Assembly: GCA_963724105.1 (NCBI GenBank)
Contig: CAVRTD010000002.1
Span: 29,650-93,649 of the forward strand
DNA length: 64,000 nucleotides
Direction: 5' to 3'
From: Terriglobia bacterium
Lineage (GTDB): Bacteria; Acidobacteriota; Terriglobia; Terriglobales; Acidobacteriaceae
Part shown: positions 38,570 through 60,331 of the stretch, in pieces
How the letters are laid out: each line of letters begins with the position of its first letter
How positions within the stretch are numbered: position 1 is the first letter of the stretch
Notes under the pieces: model-generated
The model's input: the letters and a program-made list of their open reading frames with translations, nothing else
What the model was told of the DNA's origin: nothing
Database searches by the model: none
Translations under genes and position numbers: made by a program

Positions 38570-38642
38570 ACATCCAAATGGCACTGGAGAATTCGCTGAG
38601 ATTCTGAGGGTGGACTCGATGTGGAATAAATGCGGGGAGCAA

Positions 38643-39872: not shown

Positions 39873-39873
39873 C

Positions 39874-41430: not shown

Positions 41431-41497
41431 TGTCCTGTCGGGATTAAAAACTTATTGGAATCAAGAGCAAGAAAAAGACCGGCGCTTGGGAGACCGG

Positions 41498-41875
41498 CTA
41501 GACCTGGCTCTTGGCGGCAAGAAGCCTGTCCATCTTTTCCAACAGTCGAGGTAGTTCGATTGGCTTGGTATCGTAATCGTCGCAACCGGACTGCAACGCA
41601 CGTTGCCGGTCGCTTTCCATAGCGTGCGCCGTAAGCGCGATAATGGGAATGGAGTTTACCAGCGGATTCCCTTTAATCGCAGACGCTGCCTCCCATCCGC
41701 TCATCTTAGGCAGGCTCATATCCATCAGAATGAGGTCGGGTTTGGCAGTCTGCGCCATGGCGACTCCTTCCACGCCGTCGATGGCTATTTGAACCTCAAA
41801 GCCTTTGCGCAGCAGGCGCCGCGATAACATGTCGCGATTCATCTCGTCATCTTCAACAATCAGTATGTTGGGCAT
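41498..41875 (-). CDS. CheY-like single-domain response regulator
   Basis: MPNILIVEDDEMNRDML...LILMDMSLPKMSGWE...IIALTAHAM; 125 aa. Confidence 0.9.
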   Translation of the reverse strand: MPNILIVEDDEMNRDMLSRRLLRKGFEVQIAIDGVEGVAMAQTAKPDLILMDMSLPKMSGWEAASAIKGNPLVNSIPIIALTAHAMESDRQRALQSGCDDYDTKPIELPRLLEKMDRLLAAKSQV

Positions 41876-41901
41876 TGGGATTCCTCACAGTCTTTGTTTC
41901 A

Positions 41902-44900
41902 TTAAATTACAGGCACTGCAGCTGGGATATCGGCAGGCCTGTTCATCGAACGTGCCAGCACAGCGATCAGTTCCTTCCGGGAGACGGGCTTGAGCAGATA
42001 GTCGTTCGCTCCCATGGAGAAAGCAAAGTTTTTGTCGTCAACAATGGACATCATGATGACAGGAATGGATGAGAGAGCAGGATCGTTTTTCAGTTCGCGC
42101 AGAAGCGACCAGCCATCCATGCCAGGCATGATTACGTCCAGCGTAACGGCGGACGGTTTAAGCTCGCGGGCTTTCCGCAGCCCTTCCTCGCCAGTGTACG
42201 CCGACTCCAGGCGAAGTCCCGCGCGGGAAAGATAACGACTGATCAGGTCATGCATGACCGGATCATCGTCCACCACGAGCACAGTTTGTTCGTAATTTTC
42301 AAATGTTACGTCTGGTTCCATTTCCGCCAACTCCTTTTTGTATTGAGATACCGCAGCCGGCAACTTCACGTGGAAAGCACTTCCCTCGCCCGGCCGGCTA
42401 TTCACGACGATGTCACCACCCATCATTTGGCAGAACTGCCGGCTAATGGCCAATCCAAGACCGGTCCCGCCGTACTTCCGGGTAACAGAAGAATCAGCCT
42501 GCTGAAAGGGTACAAATAACTTGCTTAGCTGTTCCGGCGTCATGCCAATGCCGGTATCACGGACGGTAAAGCACACCCAATCTCGCCCATCCACGCTGTA
42601 TTTGTTTGCGCCGATGGTAAGGACCCCATTGAAAGTGAATTTGGCCGCGTTGCTGGCCAGATTCAGCAGCACCTGCCGCACCTTGGTGACATCCGCCTCC
42701 ACGCTTCCAATCCCTGCGGGAATCTCCATCTGCACGGCGTTCCCGTTCTTGCCGATAAGAGGAGCGGCCACGGCGAGCACTTCTCTTAAAAGGGTTTCCA
42801 CCGAAAAAACCTCAAGGTACAGCTCCATCCGCCCTGATTCGATTTTTGCAATGTCAAGAATGGAATTGATCAGGCTTAGCAAATGCTTCCCCGCATGATG
42901 GATCTTTTCCAGGTCAGAAACGAACGCCGTTGCATCCGTTTCTTCCGCTTCCTCTTTCAACATCTCGCTGTATCCGATGATGGCATTCAGCGGTGTACGC
43001 AATTCATGGCTCATGCGCGCTATGAATTCACTCTTGGCCCGATTCGCCTGTTCCGCCGCGGTTTTTTCGGCGCTCTTCCTTTCGCGTTCCTGTATCTCAG
43101 CTGAGAGCTGTGAAAGTAAGCGCGTATTTCCGATCGCCAGGCTACTTTCATTGGCAACCGCCTGCAGCAAACGCAGGTCTGACGATGTGTATGGATGGTC
43201 GAATCGTTTTGGCCCCAGGCTGATGATCCCAATGAGATTGGCGGCGCTCATCAGCGGCAGCAGCAATTGCGCATGCAAAGTCTTGAGGGCTTCCTGTTCT
43301 TCCATTGGCAGCGTATGCACGGTTGAACCAGGATCGTCAAAATAAATGAGCATCGGTCCGCCATTTTCCGAGAGCAGCTCAAACACTTTGCTTTGCTCCT
43401 CCAGGTGCAGCATCGTCGCGGATGCGTGGCCTGTCCAGTGCTCCAGACAGTAGCGATTTTGTTTTTCCAGAAGCACCGCCACATAGGAAATACCCAGAGC
43501 AGACGTAAGATGAGCACTCACCGCATCCAGCAATGCCTTTGTCTCGCGAAAAGTCCCTGCCGTATCCAGAAACGTAGCCAGGGTCTGCTCCGATCCATAG
43601 TCTTCTGGAAAAAAGCGGCGATCCATCCATGAATTGGCCTTTTGCAGGACCGGTGACTGCAACACAATGAGCAGGACCATCCCGCCGATTAAGCTCTGCA
43701 ACTGCACAGCCTTTGAGAAATAGAGAAGAGATGCCAGCAAGAGACAGACCGTGGCGATTTTAAGTGTCGAGATGCTCCGCTGATCAAGGGCATATTTAAG
43801 GCTTTGGCGAACCAGCCCGCGGACTTCCGGCGAGCGATGAACCACAATGACATAGGCCAGCGTGCAGGGAAAAAGCACCAGCGAACATAACGCGGTGGCC
43901 GCAAATGACCAGGGAACTGCCTGAAATGCAGATTTGCCGCGAACCAAAGCGATGACAATCCACAAACACGCAGGCCCAAGACTGGCCAGTGTGCCGAGCC
44001 ATATCAGCTTAAGCCTGCGATACTCATCGCTCCCGCGTGGGACCTGCAGCAGTTTCAGCAGCAGGGTAATGAAACAAACGGCAATTGCTGTGGCGGTTAG
44101 ATACTGAATGCTGTGCTGAAGTTCAGGATAACCAAGCCTTACCGTCCGCATTCTTGCGAAATTGGTTTCCTCCGCCGCAACCGCAATTGCGTCTGCTGCC
44201 ACGTTGACGGCGATGGGAACAATCAATATCCACTTAAGCCAGGGAATCCGTCTATTCCATCCAGCAGGACGAGGGAAATAAATTCCAAACAGCAATAGCC
44301 AGATGCCGAATGATTCCGGCACTACGCTTTCATAGATGAATGCCGGAACACGCAATCCGGTTTCCCATCCTGGCTGCACGGCAAGCAGAGAGAAACTTAA
44401 CAAGAGTGCGAGCAACAGCCACGCAAGAGGATCATACGAGCGCTCAAATGTCACCCAGAATCCCAGGAACAAGCAGAACGCGGGCAGCACGATCTGCGTA
44501 ACAATCAGAATTGTAAGAGTGTCTGACTTGGGCGGCGCCGGGCGCTTGGGTTGCAGAGTAATTTCAAAATGTGAGAGCGTCCTGTCTGCGTGTTGTACTT
44601 GCACTTTCAGGTGATCGCCGGGATTCAAGTGCTCCACGGAGCCATGCAGGATTGAATCGCTATAGAAGCGCTTTCCATCGATTTCTGTCAGCGTGTCGCC
44701 GGGGCGCAAACCGGCGCTCTTGCTTTCCGGCAGAGCGTAAGTAATCGTCTGCTTTTGGTCATAGATGAATGGCTCGCGAGCGCGCGAAGTAGCATAACGA
44801 ATCTCATTTACGATGTGCAGCACATAGAACCACTGGAAGCCGGCTGTTACAACCAGCATCAGGGCCAAAAGACAGTAACGCACTATACGTGCGTGTGATT

Positions 44901-44958
44901 TCAAAAACATCAAACGACGGTCCATGAGATCCATTGAATCGGAATCAAGCGTGTTCAC
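41902..44958 (-). CDS. large hybrid sensor kinase: PDZ-like - multi-TM - GAF-like - HisKA - HATPase - REC
   Basis: The PDZ-like segment is [41 protein letters not shown]. About 10 hydrophobic helices follow. The H-box is [19 protein letters not shown]. The ATPase part is DTGIGM...[11 protein letters not shown] is [13 protein letters not shown]...[13 protein letters not shown]. Confidence 0.85.
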
Positions 44959-46700
44959 GGTCGTTCCTGCCTTGTATCCAACTCAGCAAGTTGCGACGGG
45001 CTTGTTGCAAAAGAACTTCCATCGGCGTTCAACCGCGGAGGAAATGCGCGCAGCTCTCTCTGGAAATAGCGGCTGTACCGCTCGCGGAATGGTGCAGGGC
45101 GGTCTGAAGCTTTTTCTTCCAGCAGCGACGGCAAAACATCGTCAACAAAATACATTTCGGCCTGGCGGTTCCCTTTTATTCCGACCAACCCGCGCGGCGT
45201 GCAGGAAAAAAAATCCTTCAACCGCTGAAAAGCACGCTCTGAGACATTAATCTTGTTGGCCGCGCCTGACATCACCATGCGCGATGCGAAATTAACAGCA
45301 TCACCCCACACATCAAAAGCAAATTTGCTTGTTCCAACCACGCCCGCGATTACAGAACCTGTGTGAATGCCAATTCTCATGGACCAGCCGGGATGGGGCC
45401 GGCTCTGCTGAGCGGCCATCACATACTGCAGCATTTCTATCGAAGCCAGCAGCGCGTCAACCGGGTGAGATGGCGTGCGCTCGGGGAGACCAGACAGAAA
45501 AATGTAGCTGTCGCCCACCGTTTTCAGCTTCTCCAGGCCGTAACGATCAACGATGGTGTCGAAAGCCGTGAAATATTCGTTTAACAGTGTAACCAGTTCA
45601 TCGGCCGTAAGTTTTTCCGTGGACGACGTGAAACTCACAAAGTCGGTGAAAATGATGGTGACATCCTCGAAATAGGTTGGCGAGACCGAACCGCGAAGCT
45701 GGAGTTCCTCGCACACCTTCCTGGGAAGAATACTCAAGAGCAGCTTCTCGGTGGTTTGTCTCTCGGCCTCAAGTTGAAGCAGGGCAGCTTTTAGCTGCTC
45801 AGTTTGTTCTCTTTCGAGATCACGTGACTGTTTACGGTCCAGCAGAGCGCGCACACGAGTGCGAAGAAGTGTGGCGTTAAAAGGCTTCAGAACGTAATCG
45901 TCCGCTCCTGTTTCGATGCAGGCGACAACTTTCTCGGTGTCGTCGACACCTGAAATCATGATAATGGGTATGTCTTTTGCAGGCTGGCCAGACTTTGCTG
46001 CCCGAAGAACTTCGAACCCGCTGGCTCCCGGCATCACCAGATCAAGAAGGACCAGATCGATGCGCCTCTTGTCGATCATTTGCAGAACTTCATGGCCATT
46101 CACCGCGAATATTACATCGTACTTGTCGCGGCGAAGTATGCGCGCGAGCAAATCGCGGTTTGCCTCGTCGTCATCAGCAACCAGTACAACCTGTTTTTCA
46201 CCTGCAATGGAAAGCCGCGCGTCGTCAGGAGTAAGTAAACCCGGCACAAGCCGCGGAGCTTCCGCCACTGGAGCGATGATCTGCTCAAACAACTTCAAAA
46301 ACTGGTGGACGGTGAATTCAAGTTCCAGAAGATCTTCGATCATGCCGGGATCCGCGTGGCCGCGCACCATAACTTGAATTTGCCTGATTCTTTCCTGAGT
46401 CTCTTTAGCGCGCAACAAAAGCCTCTGCCCTTGTGAGGGATCGCCGTCAACTCGCTGTCCGGAGCGGCCGGGTGCGGTCATCTGAAGGTCTTGCAGCAAT
46501 GACACTGCCTCCGCCTTTAGCTGGTCTAAAGGTCCGGCCAGCCCAGCCTCGCCTGCCGCTTGTCCAATTTCCATCTTCAGCAACTCACAACTGGTGACTA
46601 TATGGTTGACGCAGTCTCGAAGTTTAAGTTGGGCATCACCAGATAAGGCTGTCGATTCAGCCGGCAAGCCTGATTTCGAAGATGTGGAGGTGAAGTTCAT
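44955..46700 (-). CDS. response regulator with class III adenylate/guanylate cyclase output
   Basis: REC is [15 protein letters not shown]...[14 protein letters not shown]. The cyclase part is [16 protein letters not shown]...KTVGDSYIF...[16 protein letters not shown]...[13 protein letters not shown]. The stop overlaps the next gene start by 4 nt, and the ATG lies 2 nt after the lanC stop. Confidence 0.85.
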
Positions 46701-46702: not shown

Positions 46703-47992
46703 TTACTCCCAGGAAAGTACAGAAGGTAGTAATTCCGGTTTCGCCGCCCTAAGGAGTTGATAACCGATGCCCGCGAGGCCCTTGTGAAATGTAAGAGGGG
46801 TATTGTCATTGCTGCGACCGAATCCGTAGCGCCCCCTGGTGATGGCGCGGCGCGCAACGGAGTTTGCCAACAGGACGGCCTGTTGCTTATGGCGCTCGAT
46901 TCCAAGTTTGCGCGCAGCCTCAAGAAAAAATTCGACACGTCCCAAAGTCCCACAGCACGGAAAATCGATATGGCTCAGCGTGCCAGACTTAGCTGCTGCT
47001 CGAAGGCATCGGTCAATATCCGCGCTGACCTCCGCCTGATCGAGACAAGAGCTATTGAGCCTGCCAAGGCCAATTCCTGGAGCGCCATTGCACCAGCTAT
47101 TCCAGCATTGATAGCCGCCCTGCTCCCGGGGCAGCAGTAGATGCGGCCAATTCCCTTCATCCTCACAGTAAAGGCTGTTCTCATAAGCCAGGGCTTCCGC
47201 TGCAGCATCCCGAAAGCTTGACTCTCCCGTAATCTCAAAGAGCCGGCAGAGAGCTTGAATTATTCCCGCAGCGCCATGCGCGTATCCGGTTTGGCACTTG
47301 CCTGGTGAAGTTTCCCATGCCCTCAGACCAGACGAGGTAGTAATGCGGGCGCGGAGCAGATGTTTACCCCATAGGGCTGCCTGTTCGATCATCCACGGTT
47401 CGGGAGCAAGACTATGAAGTGATGCACAAACTAATGCGCAGCCAGCGGATCCTCCCATCAGATCGACTCCACGCGCATTAACGATTCTCTGGTGAGGAAA
47501 ACGGCGTGCAATTCGGATTGCGGCTGAAAGCAACTCCTCATCGCCCATAAACGTGGCGATTCGCGCAAGGGAGTAGATGATCGAAAATGATCCCGTTCCG
47601 GCGCCTACGCCATCCCGCGCAAGCCAATCATCAACCTGTGTCGACGAAAGAGTGCGCAGCGGCTGCACTACGGCGCAAACCAGTGACCGGTACTCAGTTT
47701 TTTCAGAGATGTGGTCTAAAGCGGCAAGAAACAAACAAATTCCGTATGTTCCACCATACAAGTCGTGGCCAGAGAACTCTCGTCCACCGGACCAAGGATC
47801 ATGTTGCAGACGCCCTGTCCACGGAGCTATTCCACCCTCCGCAAAACTGGGCGATTGGGACACGATCGCACCAATGGCTGCGGCTTCATCAAGCAGCAAG
47901 CAATGAGCCCGACTAGCTTCTTCCTGATGGACTTCTGACGCGAACTCATTACTGTCGCGTTTATGAGTAGGCAACTCGATGATAGTTTTCAT
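46703..47992 (-). CDS. lanC: LanC-type lanthionine cyclase with Cys-Cys-Gly zinc motif
   Basis: Start at MKTIIELP (47992); the track ORF is extended upstream. Motifs are GYAHGAAGI, NSWCNGAPGIGL and FPCCGTLGRVEF, the last at the position of the usual CHG. Repeated GxxG helices are also present (GGTYGICLFL, GLAGIGYQLL). Confidence 0.85.
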   Translation of the reverse strand: MKTIIELPTHKRDSNEFASEVHQEEASRAHCLLLDEAAAIGAIVSQSPSFAEGGIAPWTGRLQHDPWSGGREFSGHDLYGGTYGICLFLAALDHISEKTEYRSLVCAVVQPLRTLSSTQVDDWLARDGVGAGTGSFSIIYSLARIATFMGDEELLSAAIRIARRFPHQRIVNARGVDLMGGSAGCALVCASLHSLAPEPWMIEQAALWGKHLLRARITTSSGLRAWETSPGKCQTGYAHGAAGIIQALCRLFEITGESSFRDAAAEALAYENSLYCEDEGNWPHLLLPREQGGYQCWNSWCNGAPGIGLGRLNSSCLDQAEVSADIDRCLRAAAKSGTLSHIDFPCCGTLGRVEFFLEAARKLGIERHKQQAVLLANSVARRAITRGRYGFGRSNDNTPLTFHKGLAGIGYQLLRAAKPELLPSVLSWE

Positions 47993-48020
47993 AAGGACAG
48001 ATCCGCAAAAAAATCTGCGA

Positions 48021-49382
48021 TCACATCCGAGATTCAGTTTGGCCAGGTTTCCAGAAAGACACTTTCGGCCTCCACCTGGCGTCGGAGCCCGATGGTAGGC
48101 TCTTTGATTCGAAAATGTCACTTCCGCTTCGAAGGAGAATCGATGCAAGCCTTGTAGTCTCCTGAGAGATGGCTGGATCGATTGGCGCACCATCCGTCAA
48201 GTCAGACCAAAACGCACTTTTTTTGCGTAGATCTACATTCAACACAAAAAGGTATGCGGCCGAAGCCAAAACAAGGTGGTGATGGAACCCTTTCCATGAC
48301 CGTCCCTGGTAGCAGCCCAGATCCAGATCACGTTCAAGACAGCCCTGGTACTGCTCCTGATACGAACGATGCCGGCTCAACCGGAGGCACATGGTTTCAG
48401 TTGGCCGTTTGTGGAAACGCGCGAGGTAACAACGATAAGGTTGTGCCTGCCCGTCGGGCCAATCGACAACAAACCAGAGTCTTTGGAGGCTGCTACTTAT
48501 CCCATGTAGACCGGAATCCAGGAAGACCTCGCGAATTGCAAGCCGCGTTTGCCGTGAAGTACCTTCACGCGTAGCCCAGGAGCAGCGCGACCATTCTGCG
48601 GCCCCGATTTTTTGCATGATTTTTTCCAGCGTGTATGGATGCGGCTGCAGGCTCGAATTCCATTCAGGCGTGTTGGACTGAAAATCCCAGGCAATATTCG
48701 TTTTTGGATCCACTTCCAGAAAGAATTCCATTCCAGCGTGCAATAAGGCTGAACGAAAATCGGCGTCGTTGCCGTAAGCAGCATCGCCTACCAGCGGCTT
48801 GGGATGGAGCCCGTCACCGGTCACTTCCCGCAATAGTGCTAGCACAAGGGATGACCGTGAGGGAAAACATGCATCCTTGGGGACCCCGGACCGCGACAGT
48901 CTCGATGACTCGGCAGCCCAGTCTGGCGGGAGATACAGCCGTGCAGCAAGCGGCGCCGCGAACGATCCATCACTGGCCAGTATCTCCACGCTGATCTGGC
49001 AACGGGACTTCTTGCCATCCGCGCCACATCGCTGGTTTGATACGCCGACAGATTCATTCCCCTGCTTTGTCCATGCTCTCTCATTCACCACCCAGCGATC
49101 GACCGGTTCAATAGTGGGAATGATTGCTCTACGTATGCGCGTCCAAACCTGTTGATCGTCCCATGGGCTGTTTGCAATCGTCTGATGCAGGCTCTGGGAG
49201 TCTACTTGCAGCCGCTCGGCAAGAGGACGAATGAATTTTCTTCTTCCGGGCAGCAGCAGGCCTTCAATGTATCTGGCGGTGGCGACCCGCCGCTCCTGCC
49301 TGCCGATGCTTTCCAGCAGCGTGGAGAGATAGCGAGTCAGGTAGGGAATATTTTCTTTATATGTTGCCAGTTCCCACTTCAT
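48021..49382 (-). mobile_element. IS701-family-like DDE transposase gene, apparently degenerate, no terminal inverted repeats found
   Basis: Start MKWELATYKEN with RBS GGAGG. The sequence WVVNERAWTKQGNESVGVSNQRCGADGKKSRCQISV...ARLYLPPDWA...VGDAAYGNDADFR...GCYQGRSWKGFHHHLVLASAAYLF follows the IS701 DDE_5 layout. The first catalytic position reads N-E-R where I expect D-D-T (motif recalled from memory). Confidence 0.65.
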
Positions 49383-49452
49383 AAATTCACGACCTCCCCT
49401 TCCGACCCACATCATGGTTCCCGAATTTCCGCGGTCTGGGCGAACATAGCGT

Positions 49453-50535
49453 CTAAGCAGACGCCTTCCACAAGATCGGCGACCGCATTGCGAACTCTAA
49501 AACCTCATCCATCGACTGATCCTGAATGGGAACGGGAAGCGCCGAATGGCGCAGCCACAGGAGACGCCATGTTCCGGGATACCATTGGCGCAACCTCTCG
49601 ACCCCGCGCCACAACAGTCGCGAGAGGTACACCTCTTCAGGGTTGTTCAATCCAATCCGATTGGCAGTCATGTGAATGTGGCTTGACGTAATGGGCCAGT
49701 GGGCTTGCCGGGAAAGACCGCTGATCTCAGCAGCCAGGCCCCGGCTAATATTCACCAGGCTGGACGGCTCACAATTTTTGCTGGCACACACGGACTCAAG
49801 CTCTGCGATTACTAATTCTGTAATCTGCTTTTCCTGCCGCGAAAACACAAGATCAGCCTCCCGAATACAAGGCTCCAGCGAATCACCCCATGCCTCTGAG
49901 GCATACGCGGCGAGCCGGACAAAATCTTCTTCGTCACCCGCCAGTCCCCAGGCAAGTTGGAGGGCCAGACGCATCATCGCGGAGTTAATCCAGTCACGAC
50001 GGGAATTGCCGCGTTCATCCAGCATTTTCAGGATAGCCAGACTGGAGATGCAAAAAAGATCAATCGAGGCGCCGATATGGTCTGCGCCTCCATAGCGATT
50101 GATTTCAAACACAGGGGTAAACTGCCGCCATGAATTGTCCGCGTAGACACGACTAACGTCCGCTCGTGCTGCCGGATCAGTGGTTGCAATCGCCCGGTTC
50201 GTAGCCAGGATCTGGTCCTGAGCAACCGGCGCTTTAGAAGGATACTTGTCAAAAAAACCGGCAGCGCGCTTTTGTAGAACTTCCTCCGCGCGTCCACTGG
50301 TATTTTCATCTTTCAATCGCCAGCGCAAACGGAGATGAGGGCCTCCAAGCGAGTACCGGACAAAATAAAACCGGTCGATCACTCCCAGGCTAGCCAGTTC
50401 GAGCATGAGCGGCCACGCCAGTTCCCGCAACATTCTGTCGCGATCGGCATGATAGAACACGTGGTATGCGCGCCAGCGCAGCAATGAATCTGGGCACGTG
50501 CCACCATTAGATTGACCTATAAGTTGCGTTGCCAT
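49453..50535 (-). CDS. stand-alone LanB C-terminal (SpaB_C / thiopeptide-type) elimination-domain protein
   Basis: LLRWRAYHVFYHADRDRMLRELAWPLM...IDRFYFVRYSLGGPHLRLRWRL and the C-terminal SSHIHMTANRIGLNNPEEVYLSRLLW match the Lant_dehydr_C / TIGR03891-type pattern (W..Y...; FF.RY..GPHLRLR; H.h.NR). Confidence 0.8.
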   Translation of the reverse strand: MATQLIGQSNGGTCPDSLLRWRAYHVFYHADRDRMLRELAWPLMLELASLGVIDRFYFVRYSLGGPHLRLRWRLKDENTSGRAEEVLQKRAAGFFDKYPSKAPVAQDQILATNRAIATTDPAARADVSRVYADNSWRQFTPVFEINRYGGADHIGASIDLFCISSLAILKMLDERGNSRRDWINSAMMRLALQLAWGLAGDEEDFVRLAAYASEAWGDSLEPCIREADLVFSRQEKQITELVIAELESVCASKNCEPSSLVNISRGLAAEISGLSRQAHWPITSSHIHMTANRIGLNNPEEVYLSRLLWRGVERLRQWYPGTWRLLWLRHSALPVPIQDQSMDEVLEFAMRSPILWKASA

Positions 50536-51395
50536 GCGTAGAGAATAATTGGGATTTCTTGTAATACGATTTGCCCCAATTGCAGCAGAGTGAAGTGGTT
50601 GATCGAGCGCAGGAGACCGAACCCCTGAGCGAGAGAAGACTTTGATTGCGAGACGATCAGGAGAACCAGTCCGTCCACGTCCACCGAGAGGTCAGTTTCT
50701 TCATTCCATATTTCGGAAAAGAATTTCTGATTTGCCCGCGAGACGGCTTTTTGCAGCCATTCGCTTGACATCTCTGGCCGTTCCTTGATGCTTTGCTCCA
50801 GCCCGAACAGAAGACTTCCAGCATGGAAGCGCCAGTAGTCCGCGGGCGGAATTTTTTGCCTTTTCAATGATCGATCAACCGCTGCCAGCCAGCGAACCGC
50901 TGCTCGTGAGACGTTGCCGCCAGCTTGCTCCAAGGCCCAGAAACATACCTGGTCGATGCGCTCCCAGAGTTCATCTGCCGCAGCAACGCCGGCATTGAGC
51001 AGAAAGGGATAGCCATTGTGTTCATGCTCAAAAATCTGAAAGGAGTTGTTCAGGGCTGAACCTGGCTCTCGATCAGCCAGATTCATCGTCCTGCCCCTGC
51101 ACCCGCCGTGCCGTTCAGACACTTCCTGAGCGCTAAGTTGTGCGTGGCTTGGATAACGGGTAATAAATTTCTGAATATTGTCCTGGAGATAGGTCTTAAC
51201 GCAGTCTCCTCCGGCGGTTGTGGTGGTGAAGATGCCGAAGACGTGCGGGCTCCGCGCGTCATACGGGCAAAACCAGAGCCGCTGCAGCAATCCCTGCCGA
51301 CGGACATCGTGCGCCCACGCGTTGAGTCCGTGTTGCAGGAGGCGCTGCTGGTCCTCCATTCCCCAATAATAGATATTAAATCCGATATTCGTCAT
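50517..51395 (-). CDS. divergent SpaB_C-like paralogue (start uncertain)
   Basis: NIGFNIYYWGMEDQQRLLQHGLNAWAH...LQRLWFCPYDARSPHVFGIF and the C-terminal LLRSINHFTLLQLGQIVLQEIPIILYAW are collinear with the SpaB_C pattern. The canonical GPHLRLR and H..NR residues are replaced. Candidate starts are at 51395, 51419 or 51359. Confidence 0.5.
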   Translation of the reverse strand: MTNIGFNIYYWGMEDQQRLLQHGLNAWAHDVRRQGLLQRLWFCPYDARSPHVFGIFTTTTAGGDCVKTYLQDNIQKFITRYPSHAQLSAQEVSERHGGCRGRTMNLADREPGSALNNSFQIFEHEHNGYPFLLNAGVAAADELWERIDQVCFWALEQAGGNVSRAAVRWLAAVDRSLKRQKIPPADYWRFHAGSLLFGLEQSIKERPEMSSEWLQKAVSRANQKFFSEIWNEETDLSVDVDGLVLLIVSQSKSSLAQGFGLLRSINHFTLLQLGQIVLQEIPIILYAWQRNL

Positions 51396-52077
51396 AGATG
51401 CCGGGGCCGCTCGACTCATAATCGATCGCAATAGTCTCAAAACGAAAGAAGCTGCGGATAACACGATCGTAGAAAGGCATTCTTCGCTCTTCTTCCATGA
51501 CCATGCATAACTCTTCAAAGAAGGCAACGTTGGGCTGGCGAATCGAAAGAAAAAGACTACGGAGCGTCGAATAAAAAACGGCTGGACCGTGGGGCGTCTC
51601 GCAAAGAGGGGTGCGGTCCGTAAGCATCGCCTGCACGCGGCTGATGTGGCTATGCATTTCTTCCCATTTGCGCTGATTGCGCGCCACGCGAGCCTGGTTA
51701 ATACACAGGTCGGGACACTGCAGGGCGAATGGAATCAGGAATTCATATTCCTCTGCGGCCATGGCGACGGCCCTGTGTGCCCATTTCATCGACTCGCTTG
51801 CGCTCGCGAAATCTCCTGCTCGGTAGTGGTATAGGCCAAGAGTCTTGTAGTAAGACTGGTCAAGCACAACTCGAACCGAATTGGGTATGTCGACAGCTTC
51901 CAGAGCGCCACCGGCTTTCTGCAGAATGTTTCCGGCTTCCTTTATTTTGTGCGAACGAAGAAGCGGCATCGCGCTGTTGATCAGGCGCAAGATGTGGCAG
52001 TGACGTTTATATTCCCCAACCCATGCGAGCCCGGCATCACCGGTGCGCTCGATAAATTCAATCAGGATATCTGCCAT
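51376..52077 (-). CDS. unknown helical-repeat protein, paralogue 2 of a tandem pair
   Basis: 233 aa. It shares blocks with 52138-52809: YHYRAGDFASASESMKWAHRAV vs YFYSVGNFQQARESMNQAHDAV; QARVARNQRKWEEM vs QARIARNQRRWPEM; FYDRVIRSFFRFETIAIDYES vs LFDQFVRRMLRFQEIGIEYQS. No TM or signal peptide. Confidence 0.6.
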   Translation of the reverse strand: MADILIEFIERTGDAGLAWVGEYKRHCHILRLINSAMPLLRSHKIKEAGNILQKAGGALEAVDIPNSVRVVLDQSYYKTLGLYHYRAGDFASASESMKWAHRAVAMAAEEYEFLIPFALQCPDLCINQARVARNQRKWEEMHSHISRVQAMLTDRTPLCETPHGPAVFYSTLRSLFLSIRQPNVAFFEELCMVMEEERRMPFYDRVIRSFFRFETIAIDYESSGPGIYDEYRI

Positions 52078-52137: not shown

Positions 52138-52809
52138 TCAAGATTGATATTCGATGCCAATTTCCTGGAATCGCAGCATGCGCCGGACAAATTGGTCGAA
52201 GAGGCGGCTTCGTTCTTCCTGGTCTACTATTTTGGCGGCTACACTGGATTCTTCAGTCGTCATGTCGCCGATCTGCGCAAAAAAACTACGAAACGCGGAA
52301 AAATATATTTTTTGACCATTGATTTTTTCGCACAAAGGAACATGGTCCAGCATCATTCCCTGTGCCTGCGCGACGAACGTATTCATTTCAGGCCAGCGGC
52401 GCTGGTTGCGCGCGATTCGCGCCTGATGAAGACAGAATTCCTGACAGTGCACCGCCAGCATGATCAACCAGTCCGCACTGCTGATGGCTCTTTTCACGGC
52501 GTCATGCGCCTGGTTCATTGATTCGCGGGCCTGCTGAAAGTTGCCCACGGAATAGAAGTAATAGCCGGCAACGCCGTGGTGCCAACGGTAGAGCACTGCG
52601 CTCACAGAATCTTGTTCGCCTCTCATCGCGGACAGATGATGCGCAAATTCCCGCAGCACTCTTCCCCCTTCTTCAATCTCGCCCTTGCGCATCAGAGCCA
52701 GCGCGCGATCGCTGAGTGCAACGGCAGGCAAGTGCCGGCGATAGGCGGCAGCCCAATCCTGGCCAGCGCTGCCAGTACGCTCGGCAAAATGAAGCCAATC
52801 ACATGCCAC
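52138..52809 (-). CDS. unknown helical-repeat protein, paralogue 1 of a tandem pair
   Basis: 223 aa; see the paralogue at 51376-52077. It is the first gene after the precursor-gene terminator. Confidence 0.6.
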   Translation of the reverse strand: MACDWLHFAERTGSAGQDWAAAYRRHLPAVALSDRALALMRKGEIEEGGRVLREFAHHLSAMRGEQDSVSAVLYRWHHGVAGYYFYSVGNFQQARESMNQAHDAVKRAISSADWLIMLAVHCQEFCLHQARIARNQRRWPEMNTFVAQAQGMMLDHVPLCEKINGQKIYFSAFRSFFAQIGDMTTEESSVAAKIVDQEERSRLFDQFVRRMLRFQEIGIEYQS

Positions 52810-52954: not shown

Positions 52955-53110
52955 TCAGCCAGAGCAGACGTTAGCGGAGCAGGATGCGATCGGGCAAGGT
53001 TCAAGAACGCCGCCGGAAACATCTTCCAGCGCCTGATCGGACAGTGGTTCAATCTCAACATCTTGTTTTTTTTCTGGAATTGCATTTGGATTGGTAGCTT
53101 TGTCAGACAT
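52955..53110 (-). CDS. lanA: lanthipeptide-type precursor A1 (51 aa), not in the ORF track
   Basis: Hand translation: MSDKATNPNAIPEKKQDVEIEPLSDQALEDVSGG|VLEPCPIASCSANVCSG*. RBS AAAGGAAAAAAC precedes the ATG. The leader is double-Gly type and the core has 3 Cys and 3 Ser. The 79-aa track ORF 52846-53085 is the wrong frame. Confidence 0.8.
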   Translation of the reverse strand: MSDKATNPNAIPEKKQDVEIEPLSDQALEDVSGGVLEPCPIASCSANVCSG

Positions 53111-53295: not shown

Positions 53296-53451
53296 CTACG
53301 CTAGGTCGCCAGAGCAAACATTTGCGGAACATGAAGCGATGGGGCAGCCACCGGAAGCATCTTCGAGCGACTGGTCGGAAAGTGGTTCGATCTGAACGTC
53401 ATCCTGTTTCTTTTCGGGGACTACATTTGGTTTATTGGGAGTGTTAGCCAT
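53296..53451 (-). CDS. lanA: lanthipeptide-type precursor A2 (51 aa), not in the ORF track
   Basis: Hand translation: MANTPNKPNVVPEKKQDDVQIEPLSDQSLEDASGG|CPIASCSANVCSGDLA*. RBS AAAGGAACAACCATC precedes the ATG. It shares the CPIASCSANVCSG core block with A1. Confidence 0.8.
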   Translation of the reverse strand: MANTPNKPNVVPEKKQDDVQIEPLSDQSLEDASGGCPIASCSANVCSGDLA

Positions 53452-53642: not shown

Positions 53643-56399
53643 CTACCTTGTTGCGGCTTGCTCATCGCGTTGACGTAACCGAGATGACTCCCGGCTGGAA
53701 AACACATCGAGCGAAAACATGGCGCGCTCATCCACAGGCGATTGCAATGCAACCGCATCAACCAGCAATTCAACCGCCCACCTTTGCCCTTTGGAATCTC
53801 TGGGCATCATCTCCGGTTCGGGCAATGTTTCCACCAGCACAAGGGACCCTTCGGCTGCGAGCGCGATGGAGTGCAGGATCGAGATGAACAATGGTGAGCT
53901 CAGGTCCAGATATTGCGGCTTGTGGTATTTTCCCCGCGGGAAAGAATTAAGCTTCTCAGCCACAAACAAACGGGTTGGAATCTCGAACTTCCGGAGGAAA
54001 CGATGCAGCCGCTCAAACGCCTCTGGGCTCCCAGGGTCTTCCAGAATGCGCCGCAGATCTAGAGCTGGAACACTCCAACTCTTGCGCATAAGCACTACAT
54101 TTCCGATGCGCGTCCGCTCGCGGACGGTGATGCCATCGACCTCTCGCTGTAAGCGTTCGGGATAGAGGGGAATCGTATCTGTTGGTCCGAACGCACACAA
54201 AAACTTCACCAGAGTTGGCAGGTAAGTGGAGCCAGCAAGGCCGATATAAGACGCCAGGTAGCGCTGTCCACTGCGATCCTGCAGCCTGGGCCATCCATCT
54301 TCACCCACTGTAACAAACAGCTCTGCCAAAGAAAGGCGCCGTTCGGGCGCTATATCCATATGGGTTGCCGGCAGCACCAGGACTTTTGGGGTTTGTGGCG
54401 CATGCACGTTGAGCGTGTCACCACTCACGCAATGAATGTCCAATATCTGCAAGCATTCGTCGTTATCCAAAATTACCGCTCGCCGCGCTAACCCGTCAGC
54501 ATACTGATGGCGGAGCGGAGCCGGCATCAACGGAGTGTAACGGCTGGACATCCGGCCCGTTCCTTCTTTCAACCGGTTGAGCACCCACAGAGAACCATCC
54601 GCTGTAGCCGGTTGGAGAAAAAGGCAGCCGCCTCCCTGGTACTTCTTGAATGCGTCAGGTATCTCGTCCAGGAGAAGGTTAAAACGGCTTATCGAGATTG
54701 TGCGGCCCTGCGCATCATCCATCCAACAATTGCGCAAAGATTCGCGGGCAGCAGTGCGTACCGATAGCAAATGATCCAGCACATCCAGACCCAGCGGATT
54801 CCAGGTTGAATGCTGCTCCTCAGTGGACCTGATCGCGGACTCATGAGAAACGTATTCCTGGAACAAATCCCGCACAGCGTCAAACGCACTGAGAAGATCC
54901 AGCCTGCAGTGCTTCCCTTTACTTTTTTCGAGAACAGAGCCAACGCTGAATAGAAGATCAAGGCGGCGGTCAAACAAGCGTGAGTATCGTAAAAGTGGCT
55001 CTGCGCTCCGTTGGGCCTGTTCCATGGCCGTCCTTCCAACACTCACGACTGGAAGACCCTTATCGGATTTGGGAGAACACCAAACATCCTGATAAATATC
55101 GTGCCCGGGAATATGCGACGCCGTTTTCGTATTGGTCGGGAGTTGAGCAATACGAGTGGCGCTGAACACCATTTCGTCCATCGTTTGCTGCATGCGCAAG
55201 AGCGTTTGTCCCGGTTCATTTGCGGAAAAAAGATTTCCTTCCAGAAGCACTAACCGCTCCAGAAGTTCAATGAAGTTTTGCAGCGCCGGGTCATGCGGCA
55301 ACAGCTGGAGCTTTTGCAGGACCATTTTCTCAAGGTGCCCTTCATCGGCGCTCCAGGGCAACGCCAGATACAGAAACCCCAAATCAATCAGACTGTCTAT
55401 TTCTTCTTTGATCGACTCGGAATGCGCATCCATTTCATCTTCGATCAGCTTAAGTAGCTCAACATAATTGAGCGGACCGCTAGCCAGAAGTGATTGCAGG
55501 CGCTGGACGAGAGGCCCCTGAAGCCTGGCGCGAACAAGTGACTCGCGGTAGTAACGGATCTCCTTGGTATCTTCGTCCACTCGATACTGCCCGGGACGGC
55601 GGTGAAGAGTCCGTCCGTCCTCGAGTTTCGAAACTGAATCGTTAATCGCTACCGAAAGCGTGCGCCGCCACGGTTCATAAAGACATAACGCATCGGTACA
55701 CCGGTCAAGAATGTGTCTACGTACGCGCACTAGAGAATGCTGATCCCATTCACCAGGCAACAATCTCAAAGGCTCCGAGCCGCCTTCCACGCGACACAAC
55801 CCGACCGGAGTGAAAGTCGAGAATGGAGACAGTTTGAGAGAAGCCCGGCTGGCGTAACGCAATACTGTCGCGGCCAGGCGTTTTTCCCGGCGACCATAAT
55901 CTTCCGGCGCTTTCACTTTCAAACGGCCGGACTCGCTGGCCACTGTATTGCTTGCCACTGCCAGCCCGCAGCGGAACATGGGATTATCAATCAGCCCAGC
56001 GACACAGTGATACTGCCTTGTTGTTTCATCTCCGTGGGCTTTTACAAACTCTTGCTTTTGATGAGCGAGGTTCTCTTCCAGCTCAATCACTTGTTCCGCC
56101 AGCGCCGGAGCGGCTTGTTTTATGAGCATCCAAACCAGCTTCGTGCGATAGCGGGTTAGTGGACGTCCATTAAAGCAATCACGCTTGACTTCCAGGAGAG
56201 CGTGTCGTTTCTCGGTCGGAGCATTATGAATAGCCGCGTGAAGCTGTTCAACAAGTTCATTACGAGCGTTGGATAAATTAGCTTCGAGCTTTGCTATCGC
56301 ATTCAGAATATCGCCCAACCGGCTGGAAAAATCCTCCATTGTGCTGGCGGGGAGTCCGCTCAATCGGGCTATAAGTAGGGCTGAATTGCTCGTCGTCAC
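53643..56399 (-). CDS. lanB: LanB-type dehydratase, N-terminal (glutamylation) part only, no fused elimination domain
   Basis: 918 aa. MTTSNSALLIARLSGLPAST..., KRDCFNGRPL and LKLSPFSTFTPVGLCRV follow the Lant_dehydr_N pattern. The protein ends without a SpaB_C-like region. Confidence 0.85.
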   Translation of the reverse strand: MTTSNSALLIARLSGLPASTMEDFSSRLGDILNAIAKLEANLSNARNELVEQLHAAIHNAPTEKRHALLEVKRDCFNGRPLTRYRTKLVWMLIKQAAPALAEQVIELEENLAHQKQEFVKAHGDETTRQYHCVAGLIDNPMFRCGLAVASNTVASESGRLKVKAPEDYGRREKRLAATVLRYASRASLKLSPFSTFTPVGLCRVEGGSEPLRLLPGEWDQHSLVRVRRHILDRCTDALCLYEPWRRTLSVAINDSVSKLEDGRTLHRRPGQYRVDEDTKEIRYYRESLVRARLQGPLVQRLQSLLASGPLNYVELLKLIEDEMDAHSESIKEEIDSLIDLGFLYLALPWSADEGHLEKMVLQKLQLLPHDPALQNFIELLERLVLLEGNLFSANEPGQTLLRMQQTMDEMVFSATRIAQLPTNTKTASHIPGHDIYQDVWCSPKSDKGLPVVSVGRTAMEQAQRSAEPLLRYSRLFDRRLDLLFSVGSVLEKSKGKHCRLDLLSAFDAVRDLFQEYVSHESAIRSTEEQHSTWNPLGLDVLDHLLSVRTAARESLRNCWMDDAQGRTISISRFNLLLDEIPDAFKKYQGGGCLFLQPATADGSLWVLNRLKEGTGRMSSRYTPLMPAPLRHQYADGLARRAVILDNDECLQILDIHCVSGDTLNVHAPQTPKVLVLPATHMDIAPERRLSLAELFVTVGEDGWPRLQDRSGQRYLASYIGLAGSTYLPTLVKFLCAFGPTDTIPLYPERLQREVDGITVRERTRIGNVVLMRKSWSVPALDLRRILEDPGSPEAFERLHRFLRKFEIPTRLFVAEKLNSFPRGKYHKPQYLDLSSPLFISILHSIALAAEGSLVLVETLPEPEMMPRDSKGQRWAVELLVDAVALQSPVDERAMFSLDVFSSRESSRLRQRDEQAATR

Positions 56400-56615: not shown

Positions 56616-56765
56616 TCACCCTAAGTCTGGAGGCCCACACAAGGGTGAACCAGTTTCAGTACCGCCTGAAACTTCCTCAAGAGCGGCGTCGGAAAGGGGT
56701 TCGATTTCAGCGTCTTTCCGGCTCTGAATTGACTTGCCAGGCTGTTTTTTTTCCTCGTTTGGCAT
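56616..56765 (-). CDS. lanA: third precursor A3 (49 aa) with the same leader box, different core
   Basis: MPNEEKKQPGKSIQSRKDAEIEPLSDAALEEVSGG|TETGSPLCGPPDLG*. Start at the internal ATG 56765 of track ORF 56616-56810, with RBS GAAGGGA upstream. Confidence 0.7.
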   Translation of the reverse strand: MPNEEKKQPGKSIQSRKDAEIEPLSDAALEEVSGGTETGSPLCGPPDLG

Positions 56766-56831
56766 TTTTTTATCCCTTCGTAATAGATTTATGGGGCCTT
56801 GTGGTCGCAAATGAAACGCTCGTTGATGGAC

Positions 56832-57932: not shown

Positions 57933-58472
57933 TCAGGCCACGGAAACGTTTTGAAAATGTTGCTCAGGCGCGGGCAAGGGAACGTACCCACCGAGATCGA
58001 CAACGACGGAACTGCGAACGACTTCAATCGATAGAACCAGCCGATGCTGATTACGGTGACTCTCAACAACGCCTTCAATCCCATCAAAAGGGCCACCAGT
58101 AATCCGCACTCTGGAACCAATCTCTGCATACTCGCACGGTTGCATCTGGTATCCAGACTTGACAGCTGATTGAATTGCGCTGATTTCGTGGTCAGGGATG
58201 ATAGCTGGAGATTTAGCAGTACCGAGAATACGTATGACGCCTGGGGTCAACAGGATGGGACCGCTACCCATAGCCTTGATGCGACAAAATACATATCCGG
58301 CAAATAATGGAAGCTGTATTTCCTTCCATCGATCAGACCAGCGCCTGCGTACAACATAAGAAGGAGCAAATGTCTCGTAATTCTTTTCCGACAGGAGTCG
58401 CGCAGCAGTGAATTCATGCTGGTACCGTACGTAGATCGCACACCATGCGCTGTCATACTGGCTGAGGTCCAT
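57933..58472 (-). CDS. specialised NusG paralogue (RfaH/LoaP/UpxY-like antiterminator), first gene of the operon
   Basis: Start MDLSQYDSAW with a strong RBS GAAGGAG. The NGN-like N-terminus is WCAIYVRYQHEFTAARLLSEKNYETFAP. The KOW motif is IGSRVRITGGPFDGIEGVVES. Confidence 0.8.
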   Translation of the reverse strand: MDLSQYDSAWCAIYVRYQHEFTAARLLSEKNYETFAPSYVVRRRWSDRWKEIQLPLFAGYVFCRIKAMGSGPILLTPGVIRILGTAKSPAIIPDHEISAIQSAVKSGYQMQPCEYAEIGSRVRITGGPFDGIEGVVESHRNQHRLVLSIEVVRSSVVVDLGGYVPLPAPEQHFQNVSVA

Positions 58473-58921
58473 ACCGTCTCCTTCGGTCAACGTGAGTTTG
58501 CCGATACAGATGAATCGCACACTCTTCACCTCAAGCGGATGGAAAACAGCAGGACGTAATCTTTGTATAGAGGTGTGAGGGAGCCACCGGTTGCGGCAAG
58601 GCAGGCTGCCGCCATTTTGAGTCCCAACTTCTTACTCATTCACTAACCCTTACCGGGCCAGTCACAGTGAGAATTAGCAATGCCATTGCCAAAGCATGCG
58701 TTCTATGAAGAACCGTGCTTTCCATTGTGCATTTTGATTCACAATGATTATGTTTGTGATGGTGATTCCCACTTTGAAATTATGGATCCGCTGCTCGTTC
58801 CGCTTTTAGTTGGAGTTCAACGACTATCATTTCCATTCTGGTTGACGATTGCTGCGGTGCCGGACAGGAACAACCGTAAAGGTGGCAAATTTAATTTTGT
58901 CCGACTTATCCTCAGCCAGGC

Positions 58922-59068: not shown

Positions 59069-60331
59069 CTATTGGATGGGGGTTGACGGCGTGAATTTTG
59101 GAACCATAATCACGATGTCATATCCAAAAATAAGCCGCTCCAGCTCTTCATCAACTGGGCCAAGCGCTTTAAATCTCCGGCGAAGGCCGCGAAGATCGTA
59201 GAGAGTCCAGCCTTCCGGCAATCGATGGTCCACCAGCGGCTTAATGAAAGAAACCGCAGAACTTGTATCCTGTACCAGATCAAAATTCTCCAGTTGCGGT
59301 GGCTGGCCGGGCGCACCAAAACTGATCTCTGCTCCCTTCACTCCAATGATGTTGATATGAAGAGAGGTGGAATGATGGCCTTCTGCCAATTCAGCCACAA
59401 AATTGCCCAGATCGTCGTTATGTAGAGGATTAATCCCCTTATAAAGGTGGGCGGAGCCAAACTTGAGCAAGACTTTGGCGGGTTTTCCCTCAGCCCGCGT
59501 CTGGTCATCATAATAACGGGCGAACAACGCCTTCATCATTAGCGCCCGCTGAAGGTTGGAATCATAAGCTTCACCCTGCAGATATTTGTGGTAGATATCG
59601 CGGCTTTCGATGAAGGCATTCAGAATGGCTTGCGAAGCCGGATTCCCTTCCCGAGCCACCGAGTTCTTAAGTTCCAGAATCTCGCTGTCCGGCACAGACA
59701 GCATAAAAATATCGTTCACTTTCCCCGAAGCCACGGTCCGCGCATAGGCTTGATCATTTTCGCGGAACATCTGGCGTATTTTGGCAGCCGCCGCCTTGCC
59801 GGGATGAGAATTCAAGAGGCTCTGTAGCAAAAACCTGGACTCTCCGTAAAACTCCTGATCAAGCCCCCATATATGGAATTTTTCATTTTCCGCAGTATGG
59901 CTGCAATGGGCCAACAGATCTGTTTCCTCCTGAAGACGATAGAATGGGAGGGCGTCTGGAAATTCTTTCTGAAACTCAGCAACCTGGTGGCGTGAATCCG
60001 TGGAGCGGGCCCACTTCTCTAATTGGCCGGCCATCATTGGGCCGGTTTCAATTGCCATGGAATGAAACCCTTGCGGAACGGCAAGGTCACATATTGCAGA
60101 AGAGAACTCGGGGGTTTCCGCATTGCCGTGTTGTTCACCGATGAGCACAAACTGGGCGGAGGCAATGGCCTTGCGCAGAACCTCAGCTCCTGCGCCAGAT
60201 AAATGCCCATCCTTCAGGTTGAGATCATAGCGGTTCTCAAGAAGTTGTTTTCCGAGTTGTTCCTGCGCCAACATACATCCAAGGCCGGCAATTCCTAGAA
60301 ATACCACAGCCGCCAGTTTGGTGATCACCAA
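59069..60331 (-). CDS. secreted Tiki/ChaN/erythromycin-esterase-superfamily-like protein
   Basis: 420 aa with a signal peptide (AAVVFLGIAGLGCMLAQ). FVLIGEQHGNAETPEFSSAICDLAVPQGFHSMAIETG resembles the GE.H(G)..E...Gf...E N-terminal signature of that superfamily (recalled from memory). The gene follows lanKC by 80 nt. Confidence 0.45.
   Translation of the reverse strand: MVITKLAAVVFLGIAGLGCMLAQEQLGKQLLENRYDLNLKDGHLSGAGAEVLRKAIASAQFVLIGEQHGNAETPEFSSAICDLAVPQGFHSMAIETGPMMAGQLEKWARSTDSRHQVAEFQKEFPDALPFYRLQEETDLLAHCSHTAENEKFHIWGLDQEFYGESRFLLQSLLNSHPGKAAAAKIRQMFRENDQAYARTVASGKVNDIFMLSVPDSEILELKNSVAREGNPASQAILNAFIESRDIYHKYLQGEAYDSNLQRALMMKALFARYYDDQTRAEGKPAKVLLKFGSAHLYKGINPLHNDDLGNFVAELAEGHHSTSLHINIIGVKGAEISFGAPGQPPQLENFDLVQDTSSAVSFIKPLVDHRLPEGWTLYDLRGLRRRFKALGPVDEELERLIFGYDIVIMVPKFTPSTPIQ

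Follow-up and report, generated by a model that had tools for sequence, protein, structure and literature searches.

Three unequal copies of the LanB elimination fold in an acidobacterial split-LanB gene cluster and their possible division of labor

Three lyase-fold genes in one operon

A long minus-strand operon of the peptide-antibiotic type, in a 64-kb window of DNA from a soil acidobacterium, a Terriglobia bacterium (contig CAVRTD010000002.1; the window is the whole stretch of 64,000 nucleotides that was analyzed) holds three genes, C1, C2 and C3, whose products resemble the elimination domain of LanB proteins, and the same operon encodes a glutamyl-transferase partner, LanBN (Table 1). 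The LanB elimination fold, which as a rule completes the dehydration of serine, is known for two activities, the elimination of glutamate, which exists in anti and syn variants, and [4+2] pyridine formation. The three proteins differ in how much of the elimination site they retain, and the interpretation favored here, at a probability of roughly 0.55, is that the operon belongs to an acidobacterial class-I-type (split LanB) cluster for a peptide made by the ribosome and modified after translation (RiPP), in which the three have non-redundant roles and C2 is not a canonical lyase.

An earlier note on this DNA, made from the letters alone, had placed three genes here and quoted two motifs from each. 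All six motifs are present (FVRYSLGGPHLRLRW and HIHMTANR in C1, WFCPYDARSPHVFGIF and INHFTLLQ in C2, IMRYARGGEHLKIRLHG and MLHGMANQ in C3), as is the overlap of exactly 19 nucleotides (nt) between the stop of C2 and the start of C1 (ATGGCAACGCAACTTATAG). An identical overlap is called in a 66%-identical related locus, L001, and on the contig of P0001, an 87%-identical homolog; it measures 34 nt in locus L006, and in the related loci as a group the genes for the helical T proteins (described below), C2 and C1 meet at junctions that are anything between a gap of 2 nt and an overlap of 34 nt, the overlaps spanning 4 to 34 nt. The overlap is thus real and signals translational coupling within the operon, but the co-translation that the note had read from it is not indicated as such. 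With regard to gene boundaries, the mechanical open reading frame (ORF) of C2 spans 50517-51527 from a TTG start, and the ATG at 51395 is backed as the start codon by the N-termini of homologs and by independent gene calls of 292 amino acids on the source contig. A database protein that matches C3 at 99% identity is 337 amino acids long rather than 340, so that the true start of C3 may lie three codons downstream. Because all three are long ORFs with conserved homologs, and because of the hhalign scores given below, the genes are real far beyond chance.

A shared fold

Profile alignments and structure predictions show C1, C2 and C3 to be full-length homologs of the LanB elimination (SpaB_C/Lant_dehydr_C) fold. 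C1 exceeds the cut-offs of both family models, with 113.6 bits against a cut-off of 24.4 for PF14028 and 81.3 bits against one of 48.45 for TIGR03891, and its family profile matches MadB, TbtD, NisB, PbtD and MibB. C3 reaches 44.5 bits on PF14028 over its full length (residues 17-325) but stays below the cut-off of TIGR03891, at 21.4 bits. C2 scores 16.9-17.3 bits on PF14028, which is below the cut-off and covers only the N-terminal 47 residues, and 13.2 bits on TIGR03891.

Compared by hhalign, the C1 family aligns with the C2 family at 96.8% probability (E 3e-10, 254 columns) and with C3 at 97.7% (E 1.8e-12, 288 columns), and the comparison of C2 with C3 gives 74.8%. AlphaFold2 (AF2) modeled C2 with a predicted local distance difference test (pLDDT) score of 84.6 and a predicted template modeling (pTM) score of 0.85 from 10 sequences, and C3 with a pLDDT of 92.8 and a pTM of 0.91 from 32 sequences. 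Foldseek searches of the PDB with the two models returned TbtD, PbtD, MadB, MibB, NisB and TsrL as the only significant matches, headed by TbtD (E 1e-7 for C2 and 2e-8 for C3), with template modeling (TM) scores of 0.6-0.68 to the stand-alone proteins, which ranked first. The ranking is identical for C2 and C3 and is therefore evidence of fold, not of a TbtD-type function. Single-sequence phmmer searches with C1, C2 and C3 gave nothing useful against PDB sequences, among which the C2 family profile found no match and the C3 profile found TbtD alone (E 0.14), so that the fold assignment depends on hhalign and on AF2 combined with Foldseek.

Graded loss of the elimination residues

In NisB, the glutamyl ester is held at its gamma-carboxylate by two arginines, with a histidine serving as the base; R826 has also been described as critical, and E823 is conserved in all class I lyases (PMC9486935, PMC9011353). 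The NisB motifs at these positions are PHIRLR (R784/R786), EVERYGG (E823/R826) and IHVHNNR (H961). Alignment of the C1 profile to 4wd9/6m7y places R69, R71, E144, R147 and H288 of C1 at R784, R786, E823, R826 and H961, and all five residues are invariant in 42 homologs. On this alignment C1 carries the complete constellation of an anti-type glutamate lyase.

In the hhalign columns, C3 has K64/R66 at the arginine clamp, S133 and S136 at E823 and R826, and H302 at H961. K64, R66 and H302 are invariant in 32 homologs, and the ExxRYGG motif is absent; a nearly invariant R132 stands beside S133 and S136, and many of the 22 residues that are invariant in these homologs are ionizable (D111, D114, H208, R209, R214, D286, K299, H302, E315 and H320). 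Since the carboxylate clamp and the histidine base are retained, C3 is probably an active lyase. The corresponding positions of C2 are F53/I55 at the clamp, N127 (E823), G136 (R826) and H267 (H961), so that the glutamate-binding arginine pair and the ExxRYGG motif are missing and the histidine alone remains. Across 132 members of the C2 family, hydrophobic residues predominate at the two clamp positions (Phe in 82/132, Leu in 75/132). When TbtD and PbtD are aligned to the C1 family profile, the equivalent of R786 proves to be lost in them too (R/Y in TbtD, E/W in PbtD).

The graded loss of elimination residues proposed in the earlier note is therefore borne out by profile alignment, with five of the five NisB residues kept in C1, three in C3 and one in C2. 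The note had also named two outcomes that would speak against it: that all three proteins would prove catalytically intact, and that the divergent ones would share no fold with elimination domains. Neither was found, given that C3 lacks the ExxRYGG pair and C2 keeps only the histidine, and that both models are well predicted and have elimination-fold proteins as their only top matches. Nor does either protein look like a known syn-lyase. Enzymes of the SptBb and CoiSA(ED) type keep both clamp arginines, have lost the histidine and carry a diagnostic lysine in place of the 'RY' tyrosine (PMC9011353, PMC9486935). This signature is absent from C3, which has Y56 and H302, and from C2, which has Y45 (Phe in most of its family) and neither arginine.

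C2 as a conserved family

An exhaustive search with a hidden Markov model (HMM) found 184, 157 and 133 representative clusters of C2 relatives (clusters at 50% identity) at E<=1e-3, 1e-10 and 1e-30, respectively, nearly all of them full-length proteins of about 300 amino acids; a word-indexed search returned only 9 relatives. PF14028 is matched at E<=0.01 by 59 of 74 sampled members, and the family is on these scores a peripheral branch of PF14028 that often falls under its cut-off. The C2 of the window and a sizeable minority of its family lie below that cut-off or miss the model altogether, and mining pipelines will consequently often annotate C2 as hypothetical and misjudge the cluster.

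Among about 130 divergent family members, H51 is conserved in 100%, R48 in 99%, D108 in 98%, H96 and W188 in 97%, H267 and R263 in 94%, D46 in 93% and C99 in 86%. A candidate zinc site formed by H51, H96, C99 and H267 was considered; C99 is conserved in only 86% and is otherwise exchanged for Thr, Ala or Val. The second copy of C2 in locus L004 has lost even H267. Measured against L001, the rate of nonsynonymous substitution (dN) is 0.247 for C2, 0.268 for C1, 0.263 for C3 and 0.283 for LanBN; synonymous sites are saturated in all genes (proportion of synonymous differences about 0.7), so that only dN can be compared meaningfully and not its ratio to the synonymous rate. These sequence comparisons mark C2 as a working gene that belongs to a conserved family of its own and whose rate of evolution does not exceed that of its neighbors.

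Related loci and gene order

Thirty further loci were gathered by looking up proteins and by scanning genome representatives and metagenomes once each, and were annotated with HMMs of four families and with BLAST. Where a source is named, it is Thermoanaerobaculia (2), Acidobacteriota (1) or Candidatus Angelobacter. The dominant gene order is C3, LanBN, precursor(s), T (1-3 copies), C2 and C1. C1 is present in 20 of the 21 loci that have at least 1.2 kb of sequence downstream of C2, the exception being L004, which has two C2 copies and no C1 within 10 kb; C3 is present in 15 of the 16 loci with at least 7 kb upstream, and T lies upstream of C2 in 18 of 22. The smallest complete loci, L019 and L022, consist only of precursor, C3, LanBN, T, C2 and C1. 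In L008 and L021 the order is C3, C2, LanBN and C1, and T is absent. Accessory genes vary: L005 has a B12-radical S-adenosylmethionine (SAM) enzyme, L007 has glycosyltransferases, and L008 encodes a JmjC protein.

C3 lies directly upstream of LanBN in every locus that covers both genes, the two overlap by 4 nt in L004-L006, and C3 is the only Pfam-detectable lyase-fold protein of L004. The third gene of the earlier note thus does share the fold, but it is not a mere third copy; it is a paralog set directly upstream of the glutamyl-transferase gene. The three paralogs are, by their distribution and sequences, separate and ancient orthologous groups that have been retained together, none of them decaying, and this evolutionary pattern strongly supports the sub- or neo-functionalization that the note had suggested.

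C1 has connections of another kind. In L006 (15840-19199) a C1-type elimination domain, recognized by Pfam, is fused to the N-terminus of a C39-peptidase ATP-binding cassette (ABC) exporter, giving a protein of 1119 amino acids, and in L013 (8698-11017) a C39 peptidase gene stands between C2 and C1. Both the fusion and the adjacency suggest that the canonical lyase-fold protein is connected with the cleavage of the leader and with export. A stand-alone C1-type protein also occurs in L014 (10001-11104), where the C1 family HMM scores it at 396 bits and a class II LanM synthetase lies nearby; no Lant_dehydr_N gene was found within 10 kb of it, in a neighborhood that looks fragmented.

A gene for a LanC cyclase is found in only five distinct architectures (the window, L001, L006, L009/L024 and L028); the flanking sequence available for most related loci contains none. 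With its predicted LanB function, its LanC and its putative Ser/Thr/Cys-containing precursors behind a leader, the window has what defines a class I lanthipeptide cluster. Since most of the related loci lack it, LanC may be dispensable for the family at large.

The transferase, the T proteins and the precursors

On PF04738, LanBN reaches 81.9 bits; among solved structures it is closest to TbtB (6ec7, E 3e-24) and to a protein of goadsporin biosynthesis (9jhq). T1 and T2, encoded upstream of C2, are paralogs with 36% identity that match no Pfam family at cut-off. Weak TPR_2 matches in 4 of 8 members of the T family, and a weak match to the tetratricopeptide repeat (TPR) peptide-binding protein RapJ (4gyo, E 0.009), are the basis for calling them TPR-like. 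The earlier note had overlooked them. Invariant residues of the family include C122, R131, Q136, W139 and the P158-L-C160 triplet. A zinc site in T (CxxxC ... PLC) was considered and rejected, as only two cysteines and no histidine are invariant.

The precursors A1 and A2 share a leader of the form ...EIEPLSDxxLExxSGG and the core CPIASCSANVCSG, and precursors homologous to A2 occur in L001 and L005-L007. The motif C-S-x-x-x-C-S, often followed by N, is found behind an (E)IEPLSDxxLExxxGG leader in almost every main precursor, namely in those of the window, L001, L004-L010, L013, L016, L017, L019, L022, L029 and L034, and since it recurs in nearly all of them the conserved machinery would appear to act on this one short motif. 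Its versions include CSANVCS (window), CSVNICS, CSLSACS, CSCRNCS, CSCDSCS, CSIWCCS, CSGSGCS, CSWRRCS, CSTKDCS and CSLWSCS; variants with Thr or a longer spacer occur in L028 and L036. The two serines stand at i and i+5, each after a cysteine, and one or more residues, always including a cysteine, separate the GG of the leader from the first serine. A third precursor type, A0, whose gene separates C3 from LanBN, contains Thr and only one Cys. Peptides like it are encoded at the corresponding place in L001 and, in L005, downstream of the gene for the radical-SAM enzyme; they are missing from most other loci.

Proposed division of labor

In the favored interpretation, LanBN would glutamylate the serines of the CSxxxCS cores. 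C3, coupled to LanBN, would be a functional glutamate lyase whose active site has diverged, the clamp and histidine being kept and the E/R pair replaced, and C1 would be a canonical lyase in a late module tied to the double-glycine C39 exporter. C2 would lack the means for canonical binding and elimination of glutamate. Acting with the TPR-like T in this late, export-linked module, it might either hold and present the peptide to C1 or catalyze an additional reaction, other than elimination, on the CSxxxCS motif once dehydrated, the latter of which would parallel the reuse of the fold by pyridine synthases. Within this scheme, the choice between C2 as an adaptor and C2 as a new catalyst is close to even.

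Several observations weigh against the scheme. R826 and E823 are dispensable in characterized syn-lyases (PMC9486935), and the loss of residues is for that reason no proof by itself that C2 is inactive or that the function of C3 has changed. The conserved R48, R263 and H267 of C2 could form a relocated carboxylate-binding lyase site. C1 is apparently not an absolute requirement, as L004 has two copies of C2 and no C1 within 10 kb, and T is missing from L008 and L021. The assignment of C3 as the lyase partner of LanBN is inferred from the adjacency of their genes.

Alternative roles for C2 and C3

A stronger version of the catalytic option holds that C2 (with T), and possibly C3, are new enzymes built on the LanB elimination fold that carry out a non-elimination step on the dehydrated C-S-x-x-x-C-S motif. 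This is tentative and more doubtful than probable. Candidate steps are the regio-controlled formation of thioethers without LanC, giving a nested bicycle, or another cross-link based on dehydroalanine (Dha). If it were true, the acidobacterial clusters would make a previously unrecognized subclass of RiPPs.

At the other extreme, C2 may be a catalytically dead pseudoenzyme that serves only as a structural partner, either as a heterodimer with C1 or as a bridge to T and the precursor leader. The loss of the arginine clamp and of the ExxRYGG motif would be accounted for in this way, as would the translational coupling of C2 between T and C1, the weak match of the T profile to the peptide-binding RapJ and the L004 copy without H267. 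What speaks against it is the retention of polar and ionizable residues in 93-100% of about 130 family members, among them H96, D108 and H267 (94%), the last of which occupies the place of the catalytic base; such conservation is unusual for a pure scaffold, though binding sites can match it, and the pseudoenzyme is possible, though less likely than not.

It is rather improbable that C1, C2 and C3 are redundant glutamate lyases or lyases specialized by substrate, whether by precursor (A0 against A1 and A2), by Ser/Thr position or by alkene stereochemistry in the manner of the anti/syn pair CoiB and CoiSA(ED). Two lyases in one class I cluster have precedent (PMC9011353, PMC9486935), the window has two precursor types, one of which (A0) contains Thr, and C1 and C3 both retain clamp and histidine. 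Specialization by precursor, however, fits poorly with L007, L008, L010, L019 and L022, which have a single precursor type and still keep all three paralogs. The main cores contain Ser and no Thr, which makes E/Z stereochemistry irrelevant to them; neither C2 nor C3 bears the syn-lyase signature, and C2 lacks every canonical contact to glutamate.

The known two-lyase class I clusters (CoiB with CoiSA(ED), and the olv type; PMC9011353, PMC9486935, PMC9890492) are alike in having more than one elimination-fold protein with different active-site constellations, and their extra copy is functional and alters the product. Walker et al. had noted such extra elimination-fold proteins in class I clusters (PMC7268733), and later work on actinobacteria showed that they are syn-lyases (PMC9011353, PMC9486935, PMC9890492). 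In the known cases, which come from actinobacteria, the extra lyase accompanies a full-length LanB. Here, C3 keeps the histidine and the 'RY' tyrosine, C2 loses both arginines, and stereochemical control cannot be the reason for the extra copies in main cores that lack Thr.

A further alternative would make C2 or C3 a [4+2] cyclase similar to TbtD or MroD that joins the two dehydroalanines of CSxxxCS into a pyridine or piperidine macrocycle, in a pyritide-like pathway. The pyridine synthases (TbtD, PbtD, MroD and TclM) share the fold and set a precedent for its reuse in non-elimination chemistry after loss of the arginine clamp. The C2 and C3 models match TbtD and PbtD first (TM 0.6-0.68, E 1e-7 to 1e-8), the R786 equivalent is lost in TbtD and PbtD as in C2, and most related loci have no LanC. 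In addition, the serines of the pyritide A1 precursor MroA1 (Ser1 and Ser6, closing a 14-membered ring; PMC9247985) have the same S-x4-S spacing as the conserved motif. On the other side, the equivalog model of the pyridine synthases, NF045556 (TbtD_PbtD_pyrid), has a cut-off of 325 bits and scores C2 at 20.1 and C3 at 19.6, in both cases 15-fold or more below it, and the canonical C1 higher, at 53.3; the Foldseek ranking, being the same for C2 and C3, does not discriminate between functions. With regard to leader release, the leaders end in double glycine, the first serine is not at core position 1, and a conserved C39 peptidase exporter accompanies the clusters, even fused to C1, so that the leader is presumably removed by proteolysis and not by an aromatizing ejection. 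A free cysteine, expected to add to Dha, precedes each serine, and no azole-forming enzyme was seen among the scanned ORFs of the operon region and the export set. Taken together, these points make the cyclase quite improbable.

The idea that C2 is a decaying duplicate of C1, a pseudogene in the making, draws on its position beside C1, its score below the Pfam cut-off and its hhalign and HMM cross-scores, which place it nearer to C1 than to C3, but it is effectively refuted by the size of the family (184 clusters at 50% identity) and by a dN equal to that of the neighboring enzymes at saturated synonymous sites, to which the intact ORF, the confident AF2 fold and the retention of C2 across related loci, including those of Thermoanaerobaculia, Ca. 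Angelobacter and unclassified Acidobacteriota, can be added.

Comparison with known systems

The division of labor favored here would be a variation on split-LanB pathways (TbtB/TbtC, GodF/GodG, MroB/MroC and SptBa/SptBb, in thiopeptide, goadsporin, pyritide, pinensin and SapT biosynthesis), which likewise combine a separate transferase and a stand-alone PF14028 lyase (here C1, and probably C3) with Ser/Cys-rich precursors behind a leader. The acidobacterial system differs from them in having three PF14028-fold proteins per transferase and not one, in placing the transferase-linked C3, which has no ExxRYGG motif, upstream of the transferase, and in a conserved set that includes one to three TPR-like proteins and treats LanC as optional. 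Pyridine synthases, although they are the best structural matches of C2 and C3 and come with an MroA1-like serine spacing, are set apart by the double-glycine leaders, the C39 exporter, the cysteine before each serine and the lack of any azole-forming enzymes seen here.

A physical tie between dehydration and export has a parallel in nisin biosynthesis, where NisB and NisT are described as connected via NisC in a membrane-associated synthetase complex (PMC8546558). In the acidobacterial loci such a tie is suggested by the C1::C39-ABC fusion of L006 and the C39 gene of L013; compared with NisB-NisC-NisT, the link here is a gene fusion or adjacency and involves only the lyase-fold subunit.

No description of this system was found in a literature search that covered open-access papers and preprints. 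What sets it apart from known systems is the conserved trio accompanying one transferase, the third type of active-site constellation in C3 and the clamp-less C2 as a family of its own, and also the TPR-like partner in most loci, the near-fixed CSxxxCS motif, the optional LanC and the acidobacterial distribution. With one transferase, three differently equipped copies of the fold and a TPR-like partner, the system is a conserved natural test of fold repurposing, for which the new lyase constellation of C3 and the new conserved polar set of the clamp-less C2 provide handles. Acidobacteriota are hard to culture, and the clusters offer a route to an uncharacterized class of peptides from this phylum.

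Operon layout and neighboring genes

The order of genes in the operon is NusG paralog, C3, A0, LanBN, A1, A2, T1, T2, C2, C1, DDE_5 gene and LanC.

Table 1. Features of the biosynthetic operon and of the associated export set, in window coordinates (aa, amino acids).
Feature	Coordinates	Strand	Description
C1	49453-50535	-	Stand-alone LanB elimination-domain protein, canonical, predicted anti-type glutamate lyase, 360 aa
C2	50517-51395	-	Diverged SpaB_C-fold protein, 292 aa
C3	56832-57854	-	Divergent SpaB_C-fold protein, 340 aa, GTG start, adjoins transferase gene
T1	52138-52809	-	TPR-like helical protein, 223 aa
T2	51376-52077	-	TPR-like helical protein, 233 aa, T1 paralog; overlaps C2 start by 20 nt
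Precursor A2	52955-53110	-	51 aa; leader ...EIEPLSDQALEDVSGG; core VLEPCPIASCSANVCSG
Precursor A1	53296-53451	-	51 aa; core CPIASCSANVCSGDLA
Precursor A0	56616-56810	-	Leader ...EIEPLSDAALEEVSGG; core TETGSPLCGPPDLG; probable start is an internal Met, 56765
LanBN	53643-56399	-	Split-LanB glutamyl-transferase subunit, 918 aa, Lant_dehydr_N, without elimination domain
LanC cyclase	46703-48193	-	PF05147, 172.6 bits; true start probably near 47992
DDE_5 transposase-like gene	48021-49415	-	PF13546, 144.3 bits; between C1 and LanC
UpxY/LoaP-like NusG paralog	57933-58529	-	NF033644, 109.6 bits (cut-off 100); operon head; conserved in L001
Export and regulation set	28582-38550	+	OEP, HlyD, C39-peptidase ABC transporter (31592-33910), second ABC transporter, DUF7005, cyclic nucleotide (cNMP)-binding protein

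That a NusG paralog heads the operon suggests that the long biosynthetic transcript is made under processive antitermination. The export and regulation set also flanks the related loci L005 and L007, and the C39 domain of the window's exporter fits the double-glycine leaders of the precursors.

The DDE_5 gene begins 37 nt past C1 and overlaps the LanC ORF. It has an equivalent at the same position in L001 (11985-13373) and is absent from the other related loci; terminal or flanking inverted repeats were searched for around it and none were found. Compared with L001 it is the most conserved gene of the cluster (amino acid identity 0.78-0.81, dN 0.153, against a dN of 0.25-0.36 for the biosynthetic genes), and its synonymous sites are saturated to the same degree as those of its neighbors. 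These observations are in keeping with a gene that is old, co-inherited and under constraint, and that may have been domesticated, and not with a recent insertion sequence.

On the far side of the operon, the cluster adjoins a gene for a class III/IV LanKC-type synthetase (60412-63132, minus strand, 906 amino acids) with RamC_N, protein kinase and LanC-like domains, which is absent from the syntenic L001. Between it and the NusG paralog lies an ORF of 420 amino acids (59069-60331, minus strand) with a hydrophobic, lipoprotein-like N-terminus that has no match in Pfam or NCBIfam; a gene of 419 amino acids is called at the equivalent position of L001 (751-2010), the likeness being one of position and length alone. 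Finally, genes for cyclic-nucleotide signaling recur together with DUF7005 (36819-37991 in the window) beside related clusters, in the window (36819-46700), L001, L005 and L007. They comprise a response-regulator-nucleotide cyclase (44955-46700), the cNMP-binding protein (38011-38550) and hybrid histidine kinases, and their recurrence hints at a conserved regulatory module.

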